In this document: positions 3,204 through 52,654 of the stretch, one piece after another
Position numbering within the stretch: position 1 is the first letter of the stretch
How the letters are laid out: each line of letters begins with the position of its first letter
Assembly: GCA_928721565.1 (NCBI GenBank)
Contig: OV788638.1
Coordinates: 204,348 to 268,347 of the forward strand
Length of the DNA stretch: 64,000 nucleotides
Source of the DNA: an uncultured Clostridia bacterium
GTDB taxonomy: Bacteria > Bacillota > Clostridia > TANB77 > CAG-508
Reading direction: 5' to 3'
The notes under the pieces: generated by a model
What the model was told of the DNA's origin: nothing
Seen by the model: only the letters and a program-made list of their open reading frames with translations
The model's database searches: none
Translations under genes and position numbers: made by a program

Positions 3204-5612
3204 TTAATTCATATTTCTAAGCATATCTAATGTTGCATTAATATATCTATTTGCAAAATTTTTATTCACAACTGACTGATGTCCTGTAACTCCTTGTTTT
3301 GGTAATTCTATTAATGCTGTTTTAGCTGCTCTATTTGTTGAACCTAAATAAGTTCTTCCCCATGCTATCATATATCCTGTTCCATATCTCCCAACAGACT
3401 TTTTATTATTTTCTGGAAATTGCCTATCATAATATGAACAAATTTCTTCATTGCCTATTAATTGTTGTGTCCATCCATGCAAATCAACTAGAAGTGTTTG
3501 TCCATTTTGTGATTTATTAGCCAACATAAAATTCCTTAACGTTTGTGCTTCATATGCTTGAAATCCAGCTGTTCCATTATAATTTCGGCTAGATGTAAAT
3601 CTTTGATATGAACTTCCTATTTGCCAACATCTATTCATGTCAATTCCTTTATTGTTAGGTGCTTGACTATATAGCGTTGTTCTTCCAGGTCCATTATTAG
3701 TCCATCCATTTGTTAATCCATCTTGATTAATACCTGGGAATATGTATATTGTCCATTTATCTGCCAAATCGTAATCTTTATCATTTAATAATTTATTATA
3801 AAATTGATTTGCAATATCAACTAATTCATATCCATCTCGACTCCATATATCCTCATACCCATGAATTGCAAATGTTGCAAAAAATACATTAGGTCCATTT
3901 CCATATTTTAAATAATTCAAATTATTTCCACCTTGCCCAGAAACCCTTAAACCTGTTTGTCCATATGTTCCTGATTGGTATTCTATTTTAGGTCTAATAT
4001 TTATATTAACTATTTTTTCTAATATCAAATTATTCTGTTTATCAAAGGCCTGAACCTTTAATACTCCTTTTGTGTTTGCTAGTTCGCTTAAATTTAATAT
4101 TGCTTCGAATCCAGGTAATGGATTATATTCTTTTCCTCCATAACCTTTTATTATTTCAAGTACATCATTTCTTGATGTTCTTGTTATCCCAGAATCAATT
4201 TTTTCATCATTAAATAATATCCTAATATTTACATTTTCAATATTAGTCATTAACCAGCCTTTAACCTTTACTTTTTCTGCTCCAACTTTGTTAGCTGGTT
4301 CGTCTATATACATAGTCACTCTGTCATGTGCAATTTTAGGTACTATTTTTATTTCTATTGCTTCTAGTCTTAGTCCTTTTTCTTCAGTTCCTGCAGTTTC
4401 TCCATCATTTGCCCAACCTTGCCATCCAACATCTTGTACTAGTACTCTATATTCAATGCTATATTCCTCTGTGTTTTCGATTTCTATCTTTATAGCCTCT
4501 ATTCTTTTGCTCTGCGATACCGTTCCTGCAATCTCTCCATTGTATTTCCAATCTTGCCAGCCTATATCTTGTACATGTACCCTATATTTTATTCTCATAT
4601 TATCAGTTGCATTAATTAAGTTTAATTTTATTGCTTCTATTCTTAGCAATCTTCCTTCTGTTCCTGCTTTTTCGCCATCTTTTTTCAAATTTTGCCACCC
4701 AATATCTTGCACATGTGCTGAATATGTTACATGAAGTTCTGTATCATAAAATATGTGTGATTCTAAAGTTCCTATTACTTTTCCTTTAGAATTTATTGTG
4801 TCAATTTTTATTATATGTTGACCTGCACTTAAATCTCTTGTATCAATTTCAAAACTATATTGTGGCATTAGATTCTGTTTAACAGTTCCATATCCTACTA
4901 CTCCTTTAATAACATCAGGTCTTTCTGCATATTTTATTCTATCTTCATCTAATTTTATTTGGTCAAAATAAGCTACTATCTTTGTATCTGAAACATCAGC
5001 CATTTTCCAACCAACTACATTTATTTTATCATTTTTATAATACACTGTTCCATCTTGTGCTTGATCCAAGTTCATTAAAACCTTAGCTCTTTTTTCTACT
5101 ATCTTTATTTCTATCGCTTCTAATCTTTTTAATTGTCCTTCTGTTCCTGCTGTCTCTCCATCATATTTCCAATCTTGCCATCCTATATCTTGGATATGTA
5201 CTCTATACATTATTGAATATTCTTCTGTTTCTTCTAATTCTATTTTTATCGCTTCTAATCTTTTAGATTGTCCTTCTGTTCCTGCTAATTCTCCATCATA
5301 TTTCCAGCCTTGCCATCCTATATCTTGTACATGTGTTTTATACTTTATTTTTATACCATCTGGCAAATTAGTTGAATTGATTTTTATTGCTTCTAATCTT
5401 TTAGATTGTCCTTCCGTTCCTGCCAATTCTCCATCATTTTTCCAACCTTGCCATCCGACATCTTGTACATGACAACTATATGTAACTCTAATATTTCCTT
5501 CCTCATACTCATTTCCTTGCACTTTCATCATTATAGCTATTTGCAATACAATTAAAAGCATTAATGCTTTTAACACTTTATACCCCTTATTATTTTTCAC
5601 TAAATATACCAC
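3204..5612 (-). CDS. Secreted ChW-repeat (clostridial hydrophobic W) protein with a C-terminal M14-like zinc carboxypeptidase / gamma-D-Glu-DAP peptidase domain
   Basis: A signal peptide is followed by at least 9 copies of a ~50-aa unit, Y..HVQDIGWQ.WK.DGE.AGT.G.SKRLEAIKI (the ChW consensus). The C-terminus has HGYE ... DLHGW, which resembles the M14 HxxE...H zinc ligands. Confidence 0.65.
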   Translation of the reverse strand: MVYLVKNNKGYKVLKALMLLIVLQIAIMMKVQGNEYEEGNIRVTYSCHVQDVGWQGWKNDGELAGTEGQSKRLEAIKINSTNLPDGIKIKYKTHVQDIGWQGWKYDGELAGTEGQSKRLEAIKIELEETEEYSIMYRVHIQDIGWQDWKYDGETAGTEGQLKRLEAIEIKIVEKRAKVLMNLDQAQDGTVYYKNDKINVVGWKMADVSDTKIVAYFDQIKLDEDRIKYAERPDVIKGVVGYGTVKQNLMPQYSFEIDTRDLSAGQHIIKIDTINSKGKVIGTLESHIFYDTELHVTYSAHVQDIGWQNLKKDGEKAGTEGRLLRIEAIKLNLINATDNMRIKYRVHVQDIGWQDWKYNGEIAGTVSQSKRIEAIKIEIENTEEYSIEYRVLVQDVGWQGWANDGETAGTEEKGLRLEAIEIKIVPKIAHDRVTMYIDEPANKVGAEKVKVKGWLMTNIENVNIRILFNDEKIDSGITRTSRNDVLEIIKGYGGKEYNPLPGFEAILNLSELANTKGVLKVQAFDKQNNLILEKIVNINIRPKIEYQSGTYGQTGLRVSGQGGNNLNYLKYGNGPNVFFATFAIHGYEDIWSRDGYELVDIANQFYNKLLNDKDYDLADKWTIYIFPGINQDGLTNGWTNNGPGRTTLYSQAPNNKGIDMNRCWQIGSSYQRFTSSRNYNGTAGFQAYEAQTLRNFMLANKSQNGQTLLVDLHGWTQQLIGNEEICSYYDRQFPENNKKSVGRYGTGYMIAWGRTYLGSTNRAAKTALIELPKQGVTGHQSVVNKNFANRYINATLDMLRNMN

Positions 5613-49704: not shown

Positions 49705-50175
49705 TTATTTGTTAGTTGATCCGAAACCTCCTATTCTGATTCCTTCTGCTTTATCATTATCTACAATAAGAAATTTTTGAAACATTGCTTGTGCTATTGC
49801 TTCTCCTTTTTTTATTGTAACATCAGTATCTTTTATATTTATACATTGAATAAATATGTGCCCATCATTGTCAATATTTTCATAATAATCAGCATCTATT
49901 ACTCCTGTGCTGTGTGGAAATAATATTCCTTGCTTTTTAGGTCCTGAACTTCTTGGAACAATTAACAATACTTCATCTTCTTGCATATATGCTTTTAATC
50001 CTGTTTTTATTAATGTTGGTTTCATTCCTGGTTTGAATGCAGGAATAATTGTATCTTCAGCAGCCTCTATGTCATATGCAGCTGATGCTTTTGTTTTTCT
50101 TTCTGGCAAGTTTATGTTCTTGTCTTCATATCCTTTTGCTATTTCAAATCCTCTTATTTTTTCCATTATTATCAT
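49705..50175 (-). CDS. dut: dUTP diphosphatase
   Basis: RSSGPKKQGI, GVIDADYY and RIGGFGSTN dUTPase motifs. Confidence 0.85.
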   Translation of the reverse strand: MIIMEKIRGFEIAKGYEDKNINLPERKTKASAAYDIEAAEDTIIPAFKPGMKPTLIKTGLKAYMQEDEVLLIVPRSSGPKKQGILFPHSTGVIDADYYENIDNDGHIFIQCINIKDTDVTIKKGEAIAQAMFQKFLIVDNDKAEGIRIGGFGSTNK

Positions 50176-50227
50176 TCATCCTTTCTTTTTATATTTTTTC
50201 ATATTCTTATTTAATTGTCAAGCAATA

Positions 50228-50254
50228 GATAAAAATAAAAAATCCCTATAATGT
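50228..50254. repeat. Left copy of the 27-bp direct repeat flanking the IS (tagataaaaataaaaaatccctataat)
   Basis: Identical to 51367..51393. Confidence 0.85.
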
Positions 50255-50255
50255 A

Positions 50256-51364
50256 GGTTTGTCAAACATATGTCACACTTTATTGATGAATCTAGTGTTT
50301 CGTATACCAAATATGATATGTTGGCTCTACAATGCTTGAAATTCCTCATATTTCTCATTTGGACTTTTCCATCCTAATGGTTTCATTGGAAAGTTATTAT
50401 ACTCTCTTGACCAATGCCTTAATTTTTCTTTAAAATCTTCAAAACTTACAAATATTCTCTTGTAATAAAATCTTTCTTGATCCTTTCTATGACTTCTTTC
50501 TACTTTTCCGTTATGCCTTGGTGTCCTTGGTTTTATTAGTTTATGCTCTATTCCCATTTCTTCCATTCTCTTTTCAAACATTGTCTTCTCTTTTGCTTTT
50601 CTCGAATTTAGTCTATTTGTAAATTCAAATCCATTGTCTGTTTGTATACATTCTATTTTATATTTGAATTTCTTTATTATTATTTCTAAAAATTGTGTTG
50701 ATGCATAGGTACTATGTTCTTTGCTAGCCCATAATACTCTCTGCCTTGTATACTCATCTATTGCTGTATATTGATAATATTTCTCTTCTAGCTCTTTCAA
50801 TTCATTTGACATACATTTCTGTGGCACATATTTTACATCTATTTGTATTCTTTCTCCTGGATGACTCATTTTCTGATATGGTTTTGGTTCATATTTTTTC
50901 TTTTTACTTGGTGCTTTTTTATATATTCCTAGTCTTTGCATCACCCTATACAAACTCGTTATTTGCCTTGTATATCCGTTTCTTATCAATTTTATCCACA
51001 ATACCACTAACCCTGCGTCTGGGTTTTGAGCTTTATATTTCTTTATCATTTTTATTTCTTCCTGTGTATGTTGATTTGGGTGTGAATGTGGTCTTCTTGA
51101 TTTATTCACTAATGATTTTCTACTTCCATCATATTTTTCTCTCCATCTATATATTGTTTTTCTATGCTGTTTATATCTTTTCGCTGCTTCTGTCACTCCG
51201 TGTTTTAATGAATATTCTACAACTGATTGCTTAAATATTATATCTTGTGTTATACTATTCATAGGAAATACCTTCTTTCGATATTAGTTTTGTGGTAAAA
51301 ACATTATATCATATTGGTATTTCCTTTTTTTATTCTTTAGTGTGACATATCTATTGTAAACCTA
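50256..51364 (-). mobile_element. IS481-family insertion sequence (about 1.1 kb, single transposase ORF) with roughly 26-bp imperfect terminal inverted repeats
   Basis: IRL is taggtttgtcaaacatatgtcacact. The reverse complement of IRR is taggtttacaatagatatgtcacact. The element is flanked by identical 27-bp direct repeats. Confidence 0.7.
50327..51262 (-). CDS. IS481-family DDE transposase (N-terminal HTH plus rve integrase core)
   Basis: D-D-E triad context IQIDVKYVP / IQTDNGFEF / HNGKVERSHR, with an N-terminal HTH KTIYRWREKYDG. Confidence 0.8.
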   Translation of the reverse strand: MNSITQDIIFKQSVVEYSLKHGVTEAAKRYKQHRKTIYRWREKYDGSRKSLVNKSRRPHSHPNQHTQEEIKMIKKYKAQNPDAGLVVLWIKLIRNGYTRQITSLYRVMQRLGIYKKAPSKKKKYEPKPYQKMSHPGERIQIDVKYVPQKCMSNELKELEEKYYQYTAIDEYTRQRVLWASKEHSTYASTQFLEIIIKKFKYKIECIQTDNGFEFTNRLNSRKAKEKTMFEKRMEEMGIEHKLIKPRTPRHNGKVERSHRKDQERFYYKRIFVSFEDFKEKLRHWSREYNNFPMKPLGWKSPNEKYEEFQAL

Positions 51365-51366
51365 TA

Positions 51367-51393
51367 TAGATAAAAATAAAAAATCCCTATAAT
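51367..51393. repeat. Right copy of the 27-bp direct repeat flanking the IS; it overlaps the left arm of a terminator hairpin
   Basis: Identical to 50228..50254. Confidence 0.85.
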
Positions 51394-51416
51394 TAGGTTT
51401 CCTTAATTATAGGGAT
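51383..51416. terminator. Bidirectional rho-independent terminator
   Basis: A 12-bp perfect stem atccctataatt / aattatagggat with a 10-nt loop and T-runs on both strands. It lies downstream of the gene 51429..52007. Confidence 0.6.
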
Positions 51417-51428
51417 CTTTTTTTATTT

Positions 51429-52007
51429 TTAATTATTTTGTCCTTGTACTGTACACATTGCTGAACTACTAGCAGACAATGTTTGTTCTCCTGCATTAGA
51501 ATAGTTTAATACTGAACCTTTTAAATTCTGTGCAGTACTATCTTCACTTGTTACTGTACATGAAAATATGTCACCTGGTTTAAATGTATATGTATCACTA
51601 CCAGTATTTACAGTTGCATTTCCAACTGCAACTCCTATTTGTGGCAATATTTGTGTATCTGTATATACAACATAAACATTTTCACCTATTTTAGTATAAT
51701 TTGCTTGTGCAGTTTTCTTTCCTGGGTTCTCATCTAAAATTTGTGCCTCAAGTTCAATATCACAATTTTTTCCCGTCTTTGCATTTAATTGGCTTTGAAA
51801 AGTTTGATACTGACTTTTAGTTAATGTACCTGTATTTGCTACCTCTGCTACAAAATCCTCTACCATCTTTTGCGCCTCTTGTTGTGAGACATTATCCACC
51901 CTTGTTTCTAAAGTAATTATCATTCCTGCTGTAAGTACTACAACTACTAATAATACTATTATTACAGATGTTGTTGAATTTCCTGACATAATTATCACTC
52001 CTTTCAT
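51429..52007 (-). CDS. Hypothetical N-terminally anchored secreted protein with a pseudopilin-like N-terminus
   Basis: MSGNSTTSVIIVLLVVVVLTAGMIITLE is followed by a Thr/Ser/Gln-rich domain. Not a canonical prepilin. Confidence 0.35.
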   Translation of the reverse strand: MKGVIIMSGNSTTSVIIVLLVVVVLTAGMIITLETRVDNVSQQEAQKMVEDFVAEVANTGTLTKSQYQTFQSQLNAKTGKNCDIELEAQILDENPGKKTAQANYTKIGENVYVVYTDTQILPQIGVAVGNATVNTGSDTYTFKPGDIFSCTVTSEDSTAQNLKGSVLNYSNAGEQTLSASSSAMCTVQGQNN

Positions 52008-52021
52008 TTTTCTTTATGATA

Positions 52022-52654
52022 TTAATCTTTTGCTAATGTTAATATTCCTATTTGTTTTCTATTTACTCCATTTTTTACTAGTGCCTTTGCACATTCATTT
52101 ACTGTACTTCCAGTTGTATATATATCATCAAATAAGAGAATTTTTTTATCTTTTATTTTATAGCAATTTTTTGCTTTGTATGAATCTTTTGCATTCTCTT
52201 CTCGCTGTGCCTTATTTAATGTACTTTGTGGTACTGTGTTCTTGCATTTATATAATATGTTATCTATTACAGGTACATCGAGTAATAATGCTATTTGTCT
52301 AGCAATTAATTCACTTTGATTATATCCTCTTTCTTTTTTTCTTTCATTACTTATCGGTACTATCATTATTATATCATATATTTTTAATTTTTCAAAACTT
52401 TTTTGCATATTTTTTAAAAAATATGTAATTGTTTGGCAATAATATGGTTTTTCTTTGAATTTAAGATTTAATATTTGTTCTCTTATTAAATCTTTATATT
52501 TAAAAAAGTAATAATGTTTTTCAAAATATTTGCTTGTGTCGTTTTGGTAATCATCTATTTCAAATGAGTATTCTTCTTTTAACTTATTATTACATTTATT
52601 ACATAATGATTTGGTATTTAGTTTTCCACATATGCTACATACTTGTGGATACAT
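52022..52654 (-). CDS. comFC: ComF-family protein (ComFC/GntX; N-terminal zinc ribbon plus phosphoribosyltransferase fold)
   Basis: CSICGKL...CNKCNN zinc ribbon and LLFDDIYTTGSTVNECA PRTase motif. Confidence 0.75.
   Translation of the reverse strand: MYPQVCSICGKLNTKSLCNKCNNKLKEEYSFEIDDYQNDTSKYFEKHYYFFKYKDLIREQILNLKFKEKPYYCQTITYFLKNMQKSFEKLKIYDIIMIVPISNERKKERGYNQSELIARQIALLLDVPVIDNILYKCKNTVPQSTLNKAQREENAKDSYKAKNCYKIKDKKILLFDDIYTTGSTVNECAKALVKNGVNRKQIGILTLAKD

Follow-up and report, generated by a model that had tools for sequence, protein, structure and literature searches.

How did an insertion sequence (IS) come to lie between direct repeats much longer than those usual for its family, and what does it recognise as its target? 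The question is raised by a locus in a 64,000-nucleotide stretch of DNA from an uncultured Clostridia bacterium (hereafter the window), where identical 27-mers flank an IS481-type element and overlap the transcription terminator of a neighbouring gene. Target-site duplications (TSDs) of the IS481 family measure 2-15 bp, mostly 6 bp (ISfinder range, via PMC10045372). The preliminary description of the locus, made from sequence alone, left three explanations: i) this IS makes exceptionally long duplications, ii) it targets a repeated terminator-type sequence, iii) it arrived by recombination between repeated elements. From the analysis reported here, the element is very probably an IS of the IS481 superfamily with a lineage-fixed stagger of 24-27 bp and an oriented, promoter-guided insertion 4 bp upstream of the -35 box.

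The insertion sequence and its transposase

The complete IS occupies 50252..51366 on the minus strand (1115 bp), and homology with its relatives spans exactly tip to tip. In transposase orientation the tips read 5'-TATAGG...CCTACA-3'. All relatives share the T that precedes ATAGG... and the A that follows ...CCTAC, and neither base is duplicated where the relatives' flanks differ, so that these outermost bases are the termini of the IS itself. The inverted repeats (IRs) are imperfect, 26-27 nt long, and the element holds a single ORF. IRL (51341..51366, minus strand; TATAGGTTTACAATAGATATGTCACA) lies upstream of the transposase gene and IRR (50252..50278, minus strand; GTGTGACATATGTTTGACAAACCTACA) is the promoter-proximal end; the tip is TGT (TGTAGG...) at IRR and TAT (TATAGG...) at IRL, relative L069 alone having TGT at IRL, and ATGTC is found at positions 19-23 of both. 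An outward TTGACA lies inside IRR, 8 nt from the tip, and TTTACA lies in IRL, 6 nt from the tip.

The transposase gene (50327..51262, minus strand) encodes 311 aa with the Pfam domains HTH_28/HTH_29, rve and rve_3. Of the catalytic residues, D142 and E255 are conserved without exception in the protein alignment; the second D (IQTDNG, around residue 209) was read by eye, its column being not invariant and gapped in the IS1202-type row. A 282-aa protein (P0028), 100% identical, is encoded on a 1.55-Mb contig. Exact-protein look-ups with the transposase, the dUTPase and the 192-aa ORF of this locus gave no match, the called genes differing in start codons or sequence, and no relatives of the IS were found in viral contigs.

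The best profile among all models was that of the IS481 family (NF033577, E 9.4e-61), and the annotated proteins closest to it, with about 30% identity, are transposases of that family. The family label given in the preliminary description is thus acceptable as that of the nearest family, with the reservation that the score of 205.8 bits stays below the curated cut-off of 224. With 1115 bp and 311 aa the element has the IS481 architecture (one rve ORF, about 0.95-1.3 kb, terminal IRs), although its TSDs are not the short ones of this family. As for the IS1202 subgroup, the NCBIfam profile ISNCY_2 did not match the window transposase even at E <= 10, whereas an IS1202-type protein of 467 aa (L152) scores 409 bits with it. 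BLASTP between both proteins aligned only 39 residues around the catalytic E (E 0.008). The window transposase has Q at position E+7: the motif VERSHRKDQ is present in it and in five relatives, VERLFQTLQ in L152, and K or S occupies E+7 in two IS481-annotated proteins. The closest solved homologue by sequence is the transposase of IS5376, from the IS21 family (E 2e-4).

The 5' leader of the transposase gene (51264..51324, minus strand) contains GGAAATACC at 51324-51316, upstream of the extended -10 TGATATAAT at 51311-51303. GGAAATACC can base-pair with the segment GGTATTTCC (51272-51264), located at the ribosome-binding site, and compensatory changes are found in 7 of the 8 pairs. The conserved transposase promoter is of the extended -10 type and internal to the TTTACA of IRL. 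As the -10 that would match this TTTACA is not conserved, the idea that the IS uses the duplicated DNA, as an UP-element zone, to boost its own promoter was rejected as the main explanation. A circular metagenome contig (L099) contains IRR and IRL joined through 25 nt, with a terminal overlap of 55 nt; it is one contig and could be a multi-k assembly artefact. A junction promoter made of the IRR -35 (TTGACA) and the TACAAT of IRL seems improbable in that form, because both boxes lie 41 nt apart with the 25-nt spacer of this contig.

The repeat is a target-site duplication

An exact 28-nt direct repeat, ATAGATAAAAATAAAAAATCCCTATAAT, is present at 50225-50252 and 51366-51393. As its outermost T and A are part of the IS, which spans 50252-51366, the minimal TSD is 26 bp and the 28 nt represent apparent identity. 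One copy (50226..50251; plus strand TAGATAAAAATAAAAAATCCCTATAA) adjoins IRR and the promoter of the dUTPase gene, dut; the other (51367..51392) adjoins IRL and corresponds to the 3' arm and U-tract of the terminator of the upstream gene. The repeat noticed earlier as identical 27-mers is exact and even one nucleotide longer, but its outermost T/A is part of the IS. The larger repeat of about 35 bp suggested at that time, on the basis of the TAGGTTT that follows both copies, does not hold: the left TAGGTTT is the tip of the IS and the right one is the native hairpin loop, present also in empty sites, so the resemblance is a coincidence.

Empty sites were found through the neighbouring PfkB gene, in contigs that encode exactly the PfkB protein of the window. 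Five such contigs of the same species (L142, L144-L147) contain a single copy of the 26-mer, followed by TTGC-TTGACA. An exact-pattern metagenome search for the predicted empty site gave no match; the empty-site strains carry two SNPs and one indel within the pattern. According to the single copy in these strains, the repeat was made by the insertion and not by recombination. The length of the repeat and its overlap with a terminator hairpin could suggest that it is not a TSD, and that homologous recombination between dispersed terminator-like repeats brought in or rearranged the IS. Nevertheless, the 28-mer occurs only twice in the 64 kb, being absent elsewhere even allowing three mismatches (chance expectation 0), the empty sites hold exactly one copy, and 28 other insertions show equally long repeats of unrelated sequence, which leaves this explanation with a negligible probability. 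The long repeat is a genuine and reproducible 26-bp target duplication, not a rearrangement.

Long duplications in related copies

Both flanks were available for 85 non-redundant copies. Perfect anchored repeats are present in 28 of these, with lengths of 24 (one copy), 25 (13), 26 (13) and 27 bp (one). The sequences of these repeats are all different and the insertions are independent. At several sites, that of the window included, apparent identity reaches 27-28 bp over a minimal TSD of 24-27 bp. No anchored repeat of at least 6 bp was detected in the remaining 57 copies, and none of them has a short TSD. It is suggested that these copies, two thirds of the total, are assembly chimeras of a multicopy IS, because six cross-contig partner flanks were found among them, an explanation offered for the set as a whole rather than for each copy. 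The stagger of 24-27 bp, mostly 25-26, is a fixed property of the lineage. Both checks proposed in the preliminary description, i.e. the empty site in related strains and the flanks of other copies, have therefore come out in favour of exceptionally long duplications.

Neighbouring genes and the terminator

Upstream of the insertion, the intrinsic terminator of the 186/192-aa ORF extends over 51378..51421 (minus strand) as a strong hairpin followed by a T-run (dG -23.7 kcal/mol, z -5.65). The right copy of the repeat indeed forms one arm of this hairpin, as had been described, and the insertion left the terminator intact. On the other side, the dut gene (49705..50166, minus strand; 153 aa as called in the empty-site contigs) is located downstream of the transposase gene and co-directional with it. 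Its predicted sigma-A-type promoter (50193..50221, minus strand) consists of TTGACA at 50221-50216, a 17-nt spacer and TG-n-AAAAAT, with the -10 at 50198-50193. It is unchanged in the empty sites and is separated from the TSD by a gap of 4 nt (50225-50222). The insertion was probably near-neutral, since the sequence that precedes the host promoter is still the native one and the upstream gene retains a whole terminator.

Among known elements, IS1630 (IS30 family) and some group II introns target hairpins or inverted repeats. That the present IS targets and duplicates terminator hairpins could be supposed from the window and from one relative (L042), where the TSD makes up one half of a strong hairpin. 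However, when the 70 nt ending with the TSD were analysed, hairpins with z < -2 appeared in only 3 of 26 validated sites (median z 0), and the conserved feature, a promoter, lies on the opposite side of the TSD. Hairpin targeting is thus very improbable, and the targeting of a repeated terminator-type sequence proposed earlier is refuted by these counts and by the 28-mer being found nowhere else in the window.

A promoter as the target

Promoters were predicted from sequence with -35/-10 weight matrices (PWM), taking the best match per right flank. In 74 of 102 non-redundant flanks this match starts 28-31 nt past the right end of the IS, compared with 6% in the random control. Among the first 90 flanks, 64 matches were found at these offsets (control 6.3%; binomial p = 5e-56), and 54 matches had a score >= 7 (control 0.8%; p = 1e-89). 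In the same 90 flanks the TTG begins at offset 29 in 29 cases, at 30 in another 29 and at 31 in six, over a background per position of mostly 0-2 and at most 5. In all 25 TSD-validated sites exactly 4 nt separate the TSD from the -35, always in the same orientation. The promoter is absent at the expected offset in 28 of the 102 flanks, some of which are divergent or truncated copies, and the flanks on the IRL side show no promoter enrichment. The ORF that comes first downstream of the IS runs in the same direction in 58 of 71 cases, and the median distance from the IS to its start is 118 nt. On these data the real target is a predicted sigma-A-type promoter, not a terminator, a determinant missed in the preliminary description.

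Many targeted -35s are weak (TTGATT, TTGAAA) and their -10s are near consensus, a good -10 being present in 70% of the targeted sites and in 7.5% of matched -35 hexamers elsewhere. The composition upstream of the targeted promoters shows an A/T phasing which we take to resemble the UP-element consensus. C is enriched at position -1, a plain observation, the control set of promoter-like sites being heavily contaminated with false positives.

The same arrangement was sought in related groups. In published flanks of the IS1202 subgroup a promoter abuts the direct repeat in 31 of 37 insertions, in one orientation, the published repeats being 24-29 bp in all but one of these 37; the raw record of L152 confirms the abutting promoter. 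In a sample of the ISTde1 subgroup a promoter is found at the direct repeat in 9-10 of 15 cases. Judging from these predicted promoters, the pattern seems to hold across the IS1202 and ISTde1 subgroups as a whole. A published statement linking long TSDs with promoter targeting was not found in the searchable literature.

Proposed mechanism

The locus can be accounted for as follows. The 1115-bp IS transposed into the spacer between the 186-aa ORF and dut, most likely by copy-out/paste-in through a circle, the mode of IS3/IS481/IS30/IS256-type elements; the two strand transfers took place 26 bp apart, and gap repair gave the 26-bp TSD. The promoter-proximal joint falls 4 bp upstream of the predicted -35 and the distal joint about 2.5 helical turns further upstream, in a single orientation, with the transposase gene pointing the same way as the gene downstream; from these distances, the duplicated segment is the UP-element zone, roughly -40 to -65. 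The transpososome may be positioned by a factor at the -35, most plausibly the RNA polymerase (RNAP) holoenzyme through region 4 of sigma-A and/or the alpha C-terminal domains (alpha-CTD), which would match the model for the unrelated TnGBS/ISLre2 elements. Such tethering is suggested solely by the geometry and by the need for both promoter elements. The length of the TSD would rather be set by the transposase architecture, its classes (5-6, 15-17 and 24-29 bp) being about one helical turn apart; it does not need RNAP, because the eukaryotic IS481EU elements make TSDs of about 25 bp without the bacterial enzyme.

Random insertion followed by survivorship, in which the only copies to persist are those located just upstream of promoters, should also be considered, taking into account that all data come from fixed copies and that an intergenic position upstream of a promoter should be the least damaging one. 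Selection, however, cannot account for the 4-nt gap found in every one of the 25 sites, for the single orientation or for the lack of insertions at other intergenic offsets, and this possibility is extremely improbable. A closer competitor is that the transposase directly reads a -35-like TTG(A) and/or bent, A/T-phased UP DNA without RNAP, promoters being enriched as the location of such DNA and through selection against harmful insertions. The distance from the TTG, exact to the nucleotide, agrees with it, as do the -35-like hexamers in the IRs (TTGACA in IRR, TTTACA in IRL), the IRR tip TGTCAA of the IS1202 family, the unusual upstream phasing and the C at -1. On the other hand, direct reading does not explain the roughly 10-fold enrichment, relative to matched -35 hexamers, of a -10 that lies 23 bp past the -35 and some 50 bp away from the distal joint, nor why the targeted -35s are often weak next to near-consensus -10s; hence we regard it as rather unlikely. 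Guidance by promoter-bound RNAP holoenzyme may even be common to the IS481/IS1202 transposases with duplications of 16-17 and 24-29 bp, one transfer taking place 0-4 bp upstream of the -35 and the other one or two turns on, beyond the UP-element/alpha-CTD footprint. This generalisation is put forward tentatively, as somewhat less likely than not.

The locus joins, at single-nucleotide precision, two facts known separately: the long TSDs of IS1202/IS481-type elements and insertion upstream of sigma-A promoters. It offers a testable mechanism, in which a transposase of the retroviral-integrase type seems to measure from the -35 while straddling the UP-element zone. If RNAP guidance is true, promoter-tethered transposition would have arisen in bacteria a second time, independently of the Mutator-like TnGBS/ISLre2; many phyla would be involved, and the discrete TSD length classes, a long-standing oddity, would find an explanation. 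From the applied point of view, such ISs may serve as markers of functional promoters in uncultured Clostridia of the gut, for which transcription-start-site maps are lacking, and a near-neutral "safe-haven" site, with promoter and terminator preserved, could be exploited in Firmicutes to direct insertions to positions upstream of promoters.

Comparison with known systems

The element shares with the IS481 family the single ORF, a length of about 1.1 kb, the HTH and rve DDE domains and a TGT at one end; it differs in the TSD of 24-27 bp, in the Q (instead of K/R) at E+7 and in one TAT tip. Its long duplications are exceptional for that family, as was pointed out in the preliminary description, but they are not new, being already known in IS1202 (24-29 bp) and IS481EU (about 25 bp).

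The IS1202 subgroup (formerly ISNCY) has repeats of 27-28 bp in the text and 24-29 bp in the table of Siguier et al. (preprint 10.1101/2022.12.17.520857). It resembles the present IS in the long repeats, the tips TGT / T(a/g)T, the ATGTC at IR positions 19-23, the Q at E+7 and a direct repeat next to a -35/-10 promoter in one orientation. By contrast, its members are larger (394-507 aa and 1.3-2.5 kb, versus 311 aa and 1115 bp) and the window transposase is not a detectable member by sequence; besides, in that subgroup the promoter is next to IRL, there is no gap and the transposase gene is divergent, whereas in the present IS the promoter is on the side of IRR, the gap is of 4 nt and the gene is co-directional.

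Apart from TnGBS integrative elements (ICEs), ISLre2 and ISKra4, no earlier described case of this target choice was found. These elements insert in an oriented way on the upstream side of the -35 box of sigma-A promoters, at a fixed distance from it (PMC3942029), a likeness with the present IS, and a model of interaction with RNAP was proposed for TnGBS/ISLre2 by analogy with Ty3 (PMC3942029). They differ in having a Mutator-like (p-MULT) transposase and 8-9-bp repeats, instead of rve/rve_3/HTH_28 and 24-27 bp, and in placing the end of the element 15-17 bp from the -35, instead of 28-30 bp.

IS481EU of parabasalids, with an IS481-related transposase, shows TSD classes of about 4, 15 and 25 bp (PMC10045372); it is eukaryotic, no promoter link has been described for it and several TSD classes coexist in one family. 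Finally, the ISAba32 subgroup of the IS1202 family also inserts in an oriented way, its direct repeat abutting the XerC arm of dif-like sites (10.1101/2022.12.17.520857), although the repeats are of 5-6 bp and the targets are XerCD sites, not promoters. The position of that repeat at the XerC arm shows that, in the IS481/IS1202 superfamily, proteins bound to DNA or the architecture of the DNA can act as landmarks.

The insertion sequence and its boundaries

The insertion sequence (IS) upstream of dut (dUTPase gene) is bordered by an exact direct repeat of 28 nt, ATAGATAAAAATAAAAAATCCCTATAAT, with copies at 50225-50252 and 51366-51393; no third match exists in the 64-kb window with up to 3 mismatches allowed, the chance expectation being zero. 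The 1.1-kb element between the copies has imperfect terminal inverted repeats (IR) and a sole long ORF (50327-51262, minus strand), encoding a transposase of 311 aa with the Pfam domains HTH_28/HTH_29, rve and rve_3. The top NCBIfam model for this protein is IS481 (E 9e-61), with 205.8 bits, slightly below the curated cut-off of 224; the IS3 and IS21 models are distant runners-up, and the closest annotated plasmid proteins are IS481-family transposases (~30% identity). On the other side of the IS, the ORF of 186-192 aa (51429-52007, minus strand) immediately follows a ComF-like phosphoribosyltransferase gene (52022-52654). The ORF product has a hydrophobic N-terminus, and no Pfam match was found for it.

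Relatives of the element were collected from genomes (41 loci) and metagenomes (80), with 20 extra ones from an exact-protein look-up, and they come from gut or rumen Clostridia almost throughout. Their homology with the window element spans tip to tip. Every relative has an IS beginning with T-ATAGGTTTACAAT and ending with GACAAACCTAC-A, and wherever the flanking DNA is decisive the terminal T and A lie outside the duplication. Since these bases are not duplicated, the window IS runs from 50252 to 51366 (1115 bp); its minimal target-site duplication (TSD) is 26 bp (50226-50251 on the left, equal to 51367-51392), and the apparent identity of 28 nt is due to native bases beside the TSD that match the IS tips by chance. 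The TAGGTTT noticed after both copies in the preliminary description has unrelated sources, the left one being the IS tip and the right one the native hairpin loop.

The long target-site duplication

Three explanations had been offered for the repeat: unusually long duplications made by this IS, a repeated terminator-type sequence as target, or arrival by recombination between repeats. The empty site, whose search in related strains had been proposed, was found in contigs L142 and L144-L147, which were picked by an encoded PfkB protein identical to that of the window. Their gene order is 186-aa ORF, 121 nt and dut, without the IS, and they hold one copy of the 26-mer (...GGAAACCTAATTATAGGtATTTTTTATTTTtTATCTA-TTGC-TTGACA...); an exact-pattern search missed them because of two SNPs and one indel in those strains.

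The flanks of other copies, the second comparison proposed, point the same way. Both flanks are available for 85 non-redundant copies. In 28 of these, perfect repeats are anchored at the two tips, all of different sequence, with lengths of 24 bp (1 copy), 25 bp (13), 26 bp (13) and 27 bp (1). An anchored repeat of at least 6 bp is absent from the remaining 57, and no copy of the 85 has a short TSD. For the copies without repeat, chimeric assembly of a multicopy IS is the best explanation; for six left flanks the partner flank (25-26 bp) was located on another contig, as for L017 with L010, two loci of the same MAG. On the grounds of the empty site and of this lineage trait, the window repeat is a genuine TSD, and the first explanation is correct. 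Recombination between dispersed repeats is excluded by the single-copy empty sites and by the long repeats of unrelated sequence in the relatives.

With regard to the terminator, the right repeat copy does form part of the hairpin of the upstream ORF, as had been described (51421-51378, minus strand; dG -23.7 kcal/mol, z -5.65), the TSD spanning the U-tract and the 3' arm. Once the IS has inserted, the whole hairpin remains with the upstream gene and the whole zone from -40 to -65 with the dut promoter. However, of 26 validated targets (median z 0) only 3 show a significant hairpin within the 70 nt up to and including the TSD, so that the overlap at the window site is incidental and a terminator-type target is refuted. 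Between the filled strain (window 51378-51421) and the empty one (L142:4560-4610), the stem shows a pairing-preserving double change (C-G to G.U), and the U-tract differs by one extra T.

The promoter as target

An alignment of the flanks outside IRR, the IS end that lies downstream of the transposase gene, reveals a -35/-10 promoter at a constant position. A simple weight matrix for TTGACA-N16-18-TATAAT places the start of the top match 28-31 nt past the IS end in 74 of the 102 non-redundant flanks. Matches at the expected offset were found in 64 of the first 90 flanks, against 6.3% at positions chosen randomly within the same contigs (p = 5e-56), and those with a score of at least 7 in 54, against 0.8% (p = 1e-89). 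TTG starts at offsets 29, 30 and 31 in 29, 29 and 6 of these 90 flanks, the background per position being mostly 0-2 and at most 5. A good -10 accompanies 70% of the targeted flanks but 7.5% of the same -35 hexamers elsewhere, which indicates that the target is the entire promoter and not a TTG motif. In 58 of 71 cases the first ORF downstream is co-directional; its median start is 118 nt from the IS. No promoter enrichment exists on the opposite flank at any offset; insertion is therefore strictly oriented.

The gap between the end of the TSD and the -35 hexamer is exactly 4 nt in all 25 TSD-validated sites having a promoter, and the offset tracks the TSD length (28, 29 and 30 for 24, 25 and 26 bp). 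Consequently, the -35 anchors the promoter-proximal joint, and the position of the distal one varies by ~1 bp. These data demonstrate a joint staggered by 24-27 bp, proximal at -35 minus 4 and in a single orientation, which needs both promoter elements and preserves promoter and terminator alike. In the window, the predicted dut promoter (minus strand) consists of TTGACA (50221-50216), 17 nt and TG-n-AAAAAT ending at 50193, and the empty sites carry it without any change. The DNA that is duplicated covers about -40 to -65, and its A-rich/T-rich/A-rich phasing is similar to the UP-element consensus. In the right flanks of the relatives, position -1 relative to the -35 hexamer of targeted promoters is C in 47% and T in 7%, against 18% and 40% in unfiltered promoter-like control sites; this preference could be due to contact with the transposase, or else be an artefact that stems from the noisy control set.

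The transposase leader

A conserved long-range pairing (window 51264-51324, minus strand) joins GGAAATACC with GGTATTTCC at the ribosome-binding site (RBS), and 7 of its 8 pairs show compensatory changes in 18 relatives. The extended -10 of the transposase gene, TGATATAAT (51311-51303, minus strand), lies just downstream of GGAAATACC. Judging from the sequence, the pairing would sequester the RBS solely in transcripts that read through into the IS from outside, a protection in the style of IS10 and IS50.

Relation to IS481 and IS1202

TSDs of IS481 elements are of 2-15 bp in ISfinder, mostly 6; the IS1202 group, nested phylogenetically within IS481, has three discrete classes of 5-6, 15-17 and 24-29 bp, and those of eukaryotic IS481EU are ~4, ~15 and ~25 bp (PMC10045372). 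The IS1202-family subgroups are ISAba32 (5-6 bp), which targets XerCD sites in a fixed orientation, and ISTde1 (15-17 bp) and IS1202 (27-28 bp), without reported target; the family has TGT at IRR, T(a/g)T at IRL, a conserved IR block near position 20 and Q at E+7 (10.1101/2022.12.17.520857). The window IS shares with the IS1202 subgroup the TAT/TGT tips, ATGTC at IR positions 19-23, Q at E+7 and the TSD length. Residue 7 after the catalytic E (residues 255-262 of the window transposase, seen in the transposase alignment) is Q in the window lineage and in the IS1202-type protein; two transposases annotated as IS481 have K or S instead. The Q is common to the window lineage and the long-TSD IS1202 family despite no detectable overall homology to the family profile.

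The ISNCY_2 model gives no match whatever with the window transposase. The transposase of L152 (467 aa), a plasmid record with a genuine IS1202-subgroup element, scores 409 bits on ISNCY_2 and only 73 on IS481, and BLASTP between both proteins aligned the E motif alone. For these reasons the window element is filed within the IS481 family, as a divergent lineage that has IS1202-like features, and not as an IS1202 member.

Proposed mechanism

The window IS would transpose by copy-out/paste-in, the mode of the IS3 and IS481 families. A circular-path metagenome contig (L099:1-1195) with a 55-nt terminal overlap has a unique length of 1140 nt, that is IS + 25 nt, and across its junction (376-455) the order is IRR-25 nt-IRL. 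This contig may represent a copy-out circle or a tandem dimer with a TSD-length spacer, which fits copy-out/paste-in, or else a multi-k assembler artefact. Circles with a direct-repeat-length spacer are reported for ISKpn21 (10.1101/2022.12.17.520857).

The promoter-bound holoenzyme would position the transpososome, and the two joints would flank the zone bound by the alpha C-terminal domains. In E. coli and B. subtilis promoters these domains bind in that upstream zone. Direct read-out of the -35 and of bent DNA is a serious rival to positioning by the holoenzyme, possible if somewhat unlikely. Selection alone is not a serious rival as the source of the promoter pattern. The TSD classes are ~10.5 bp apart, which suggests a second active site offset by whole helical turns; inner and outer subunits were a speculation of Kojima (PMC10045372).

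Comparison with known systems

The long repeat that had been flagged is real and explained. By itself it is a modest result, the length class being already known in the sister group; its interest is raised by the promoter-anchored geometry and by the apparent extension of it to the IS1202 and ISTde1 subgroups. Left flanks were taken from Suppl. Table 1 of 10.1101/2022.12.17.520857 for each of the 37 IS1202-subgroup insertions with direct repeat. The repeats are of 24-29 bp with one exception, and the top promoter match, reading away from IRL, is at offset 0 from the repeat in 31 (33 with offsets 1-2). IS1202 itself is among them (TTGACA-16-TATAAT), and in L152 a 27-bp direct repeat is immediately followed by TTGACA-17-TATAAT (L152:2474-2500, 4183-4240). 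Among 15 sampled ISTde1-subgroup insertions (15-18-bp repeats), 9-10 have a repeat-abutting promoter. This pattern is undescribed in the preprint text, in Harmer and Hall's paper and in the searched later literature mentioning IS1202.

The geometries differ: in the IS1202 family the promoter is at the IRL side with zero gap and the transposase gene is divergent, whereas in the window lineage it is at the IRR side with a 4-nt gap and the gene is co-directional. Promoter targeting was already known for TnGBS ICEs, ISLre2 and ISKra4, whose Mutator-like transposases belong to a superfamily unrelated to the window IS; these elements make 8-9-bp repeats and integrate in fixed orientation on the upstream side of the -35, at a distance of 15-17 bp. 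By analogy with Ty3, a model in which they interact with RNAP has been put forward (PMC3942029).
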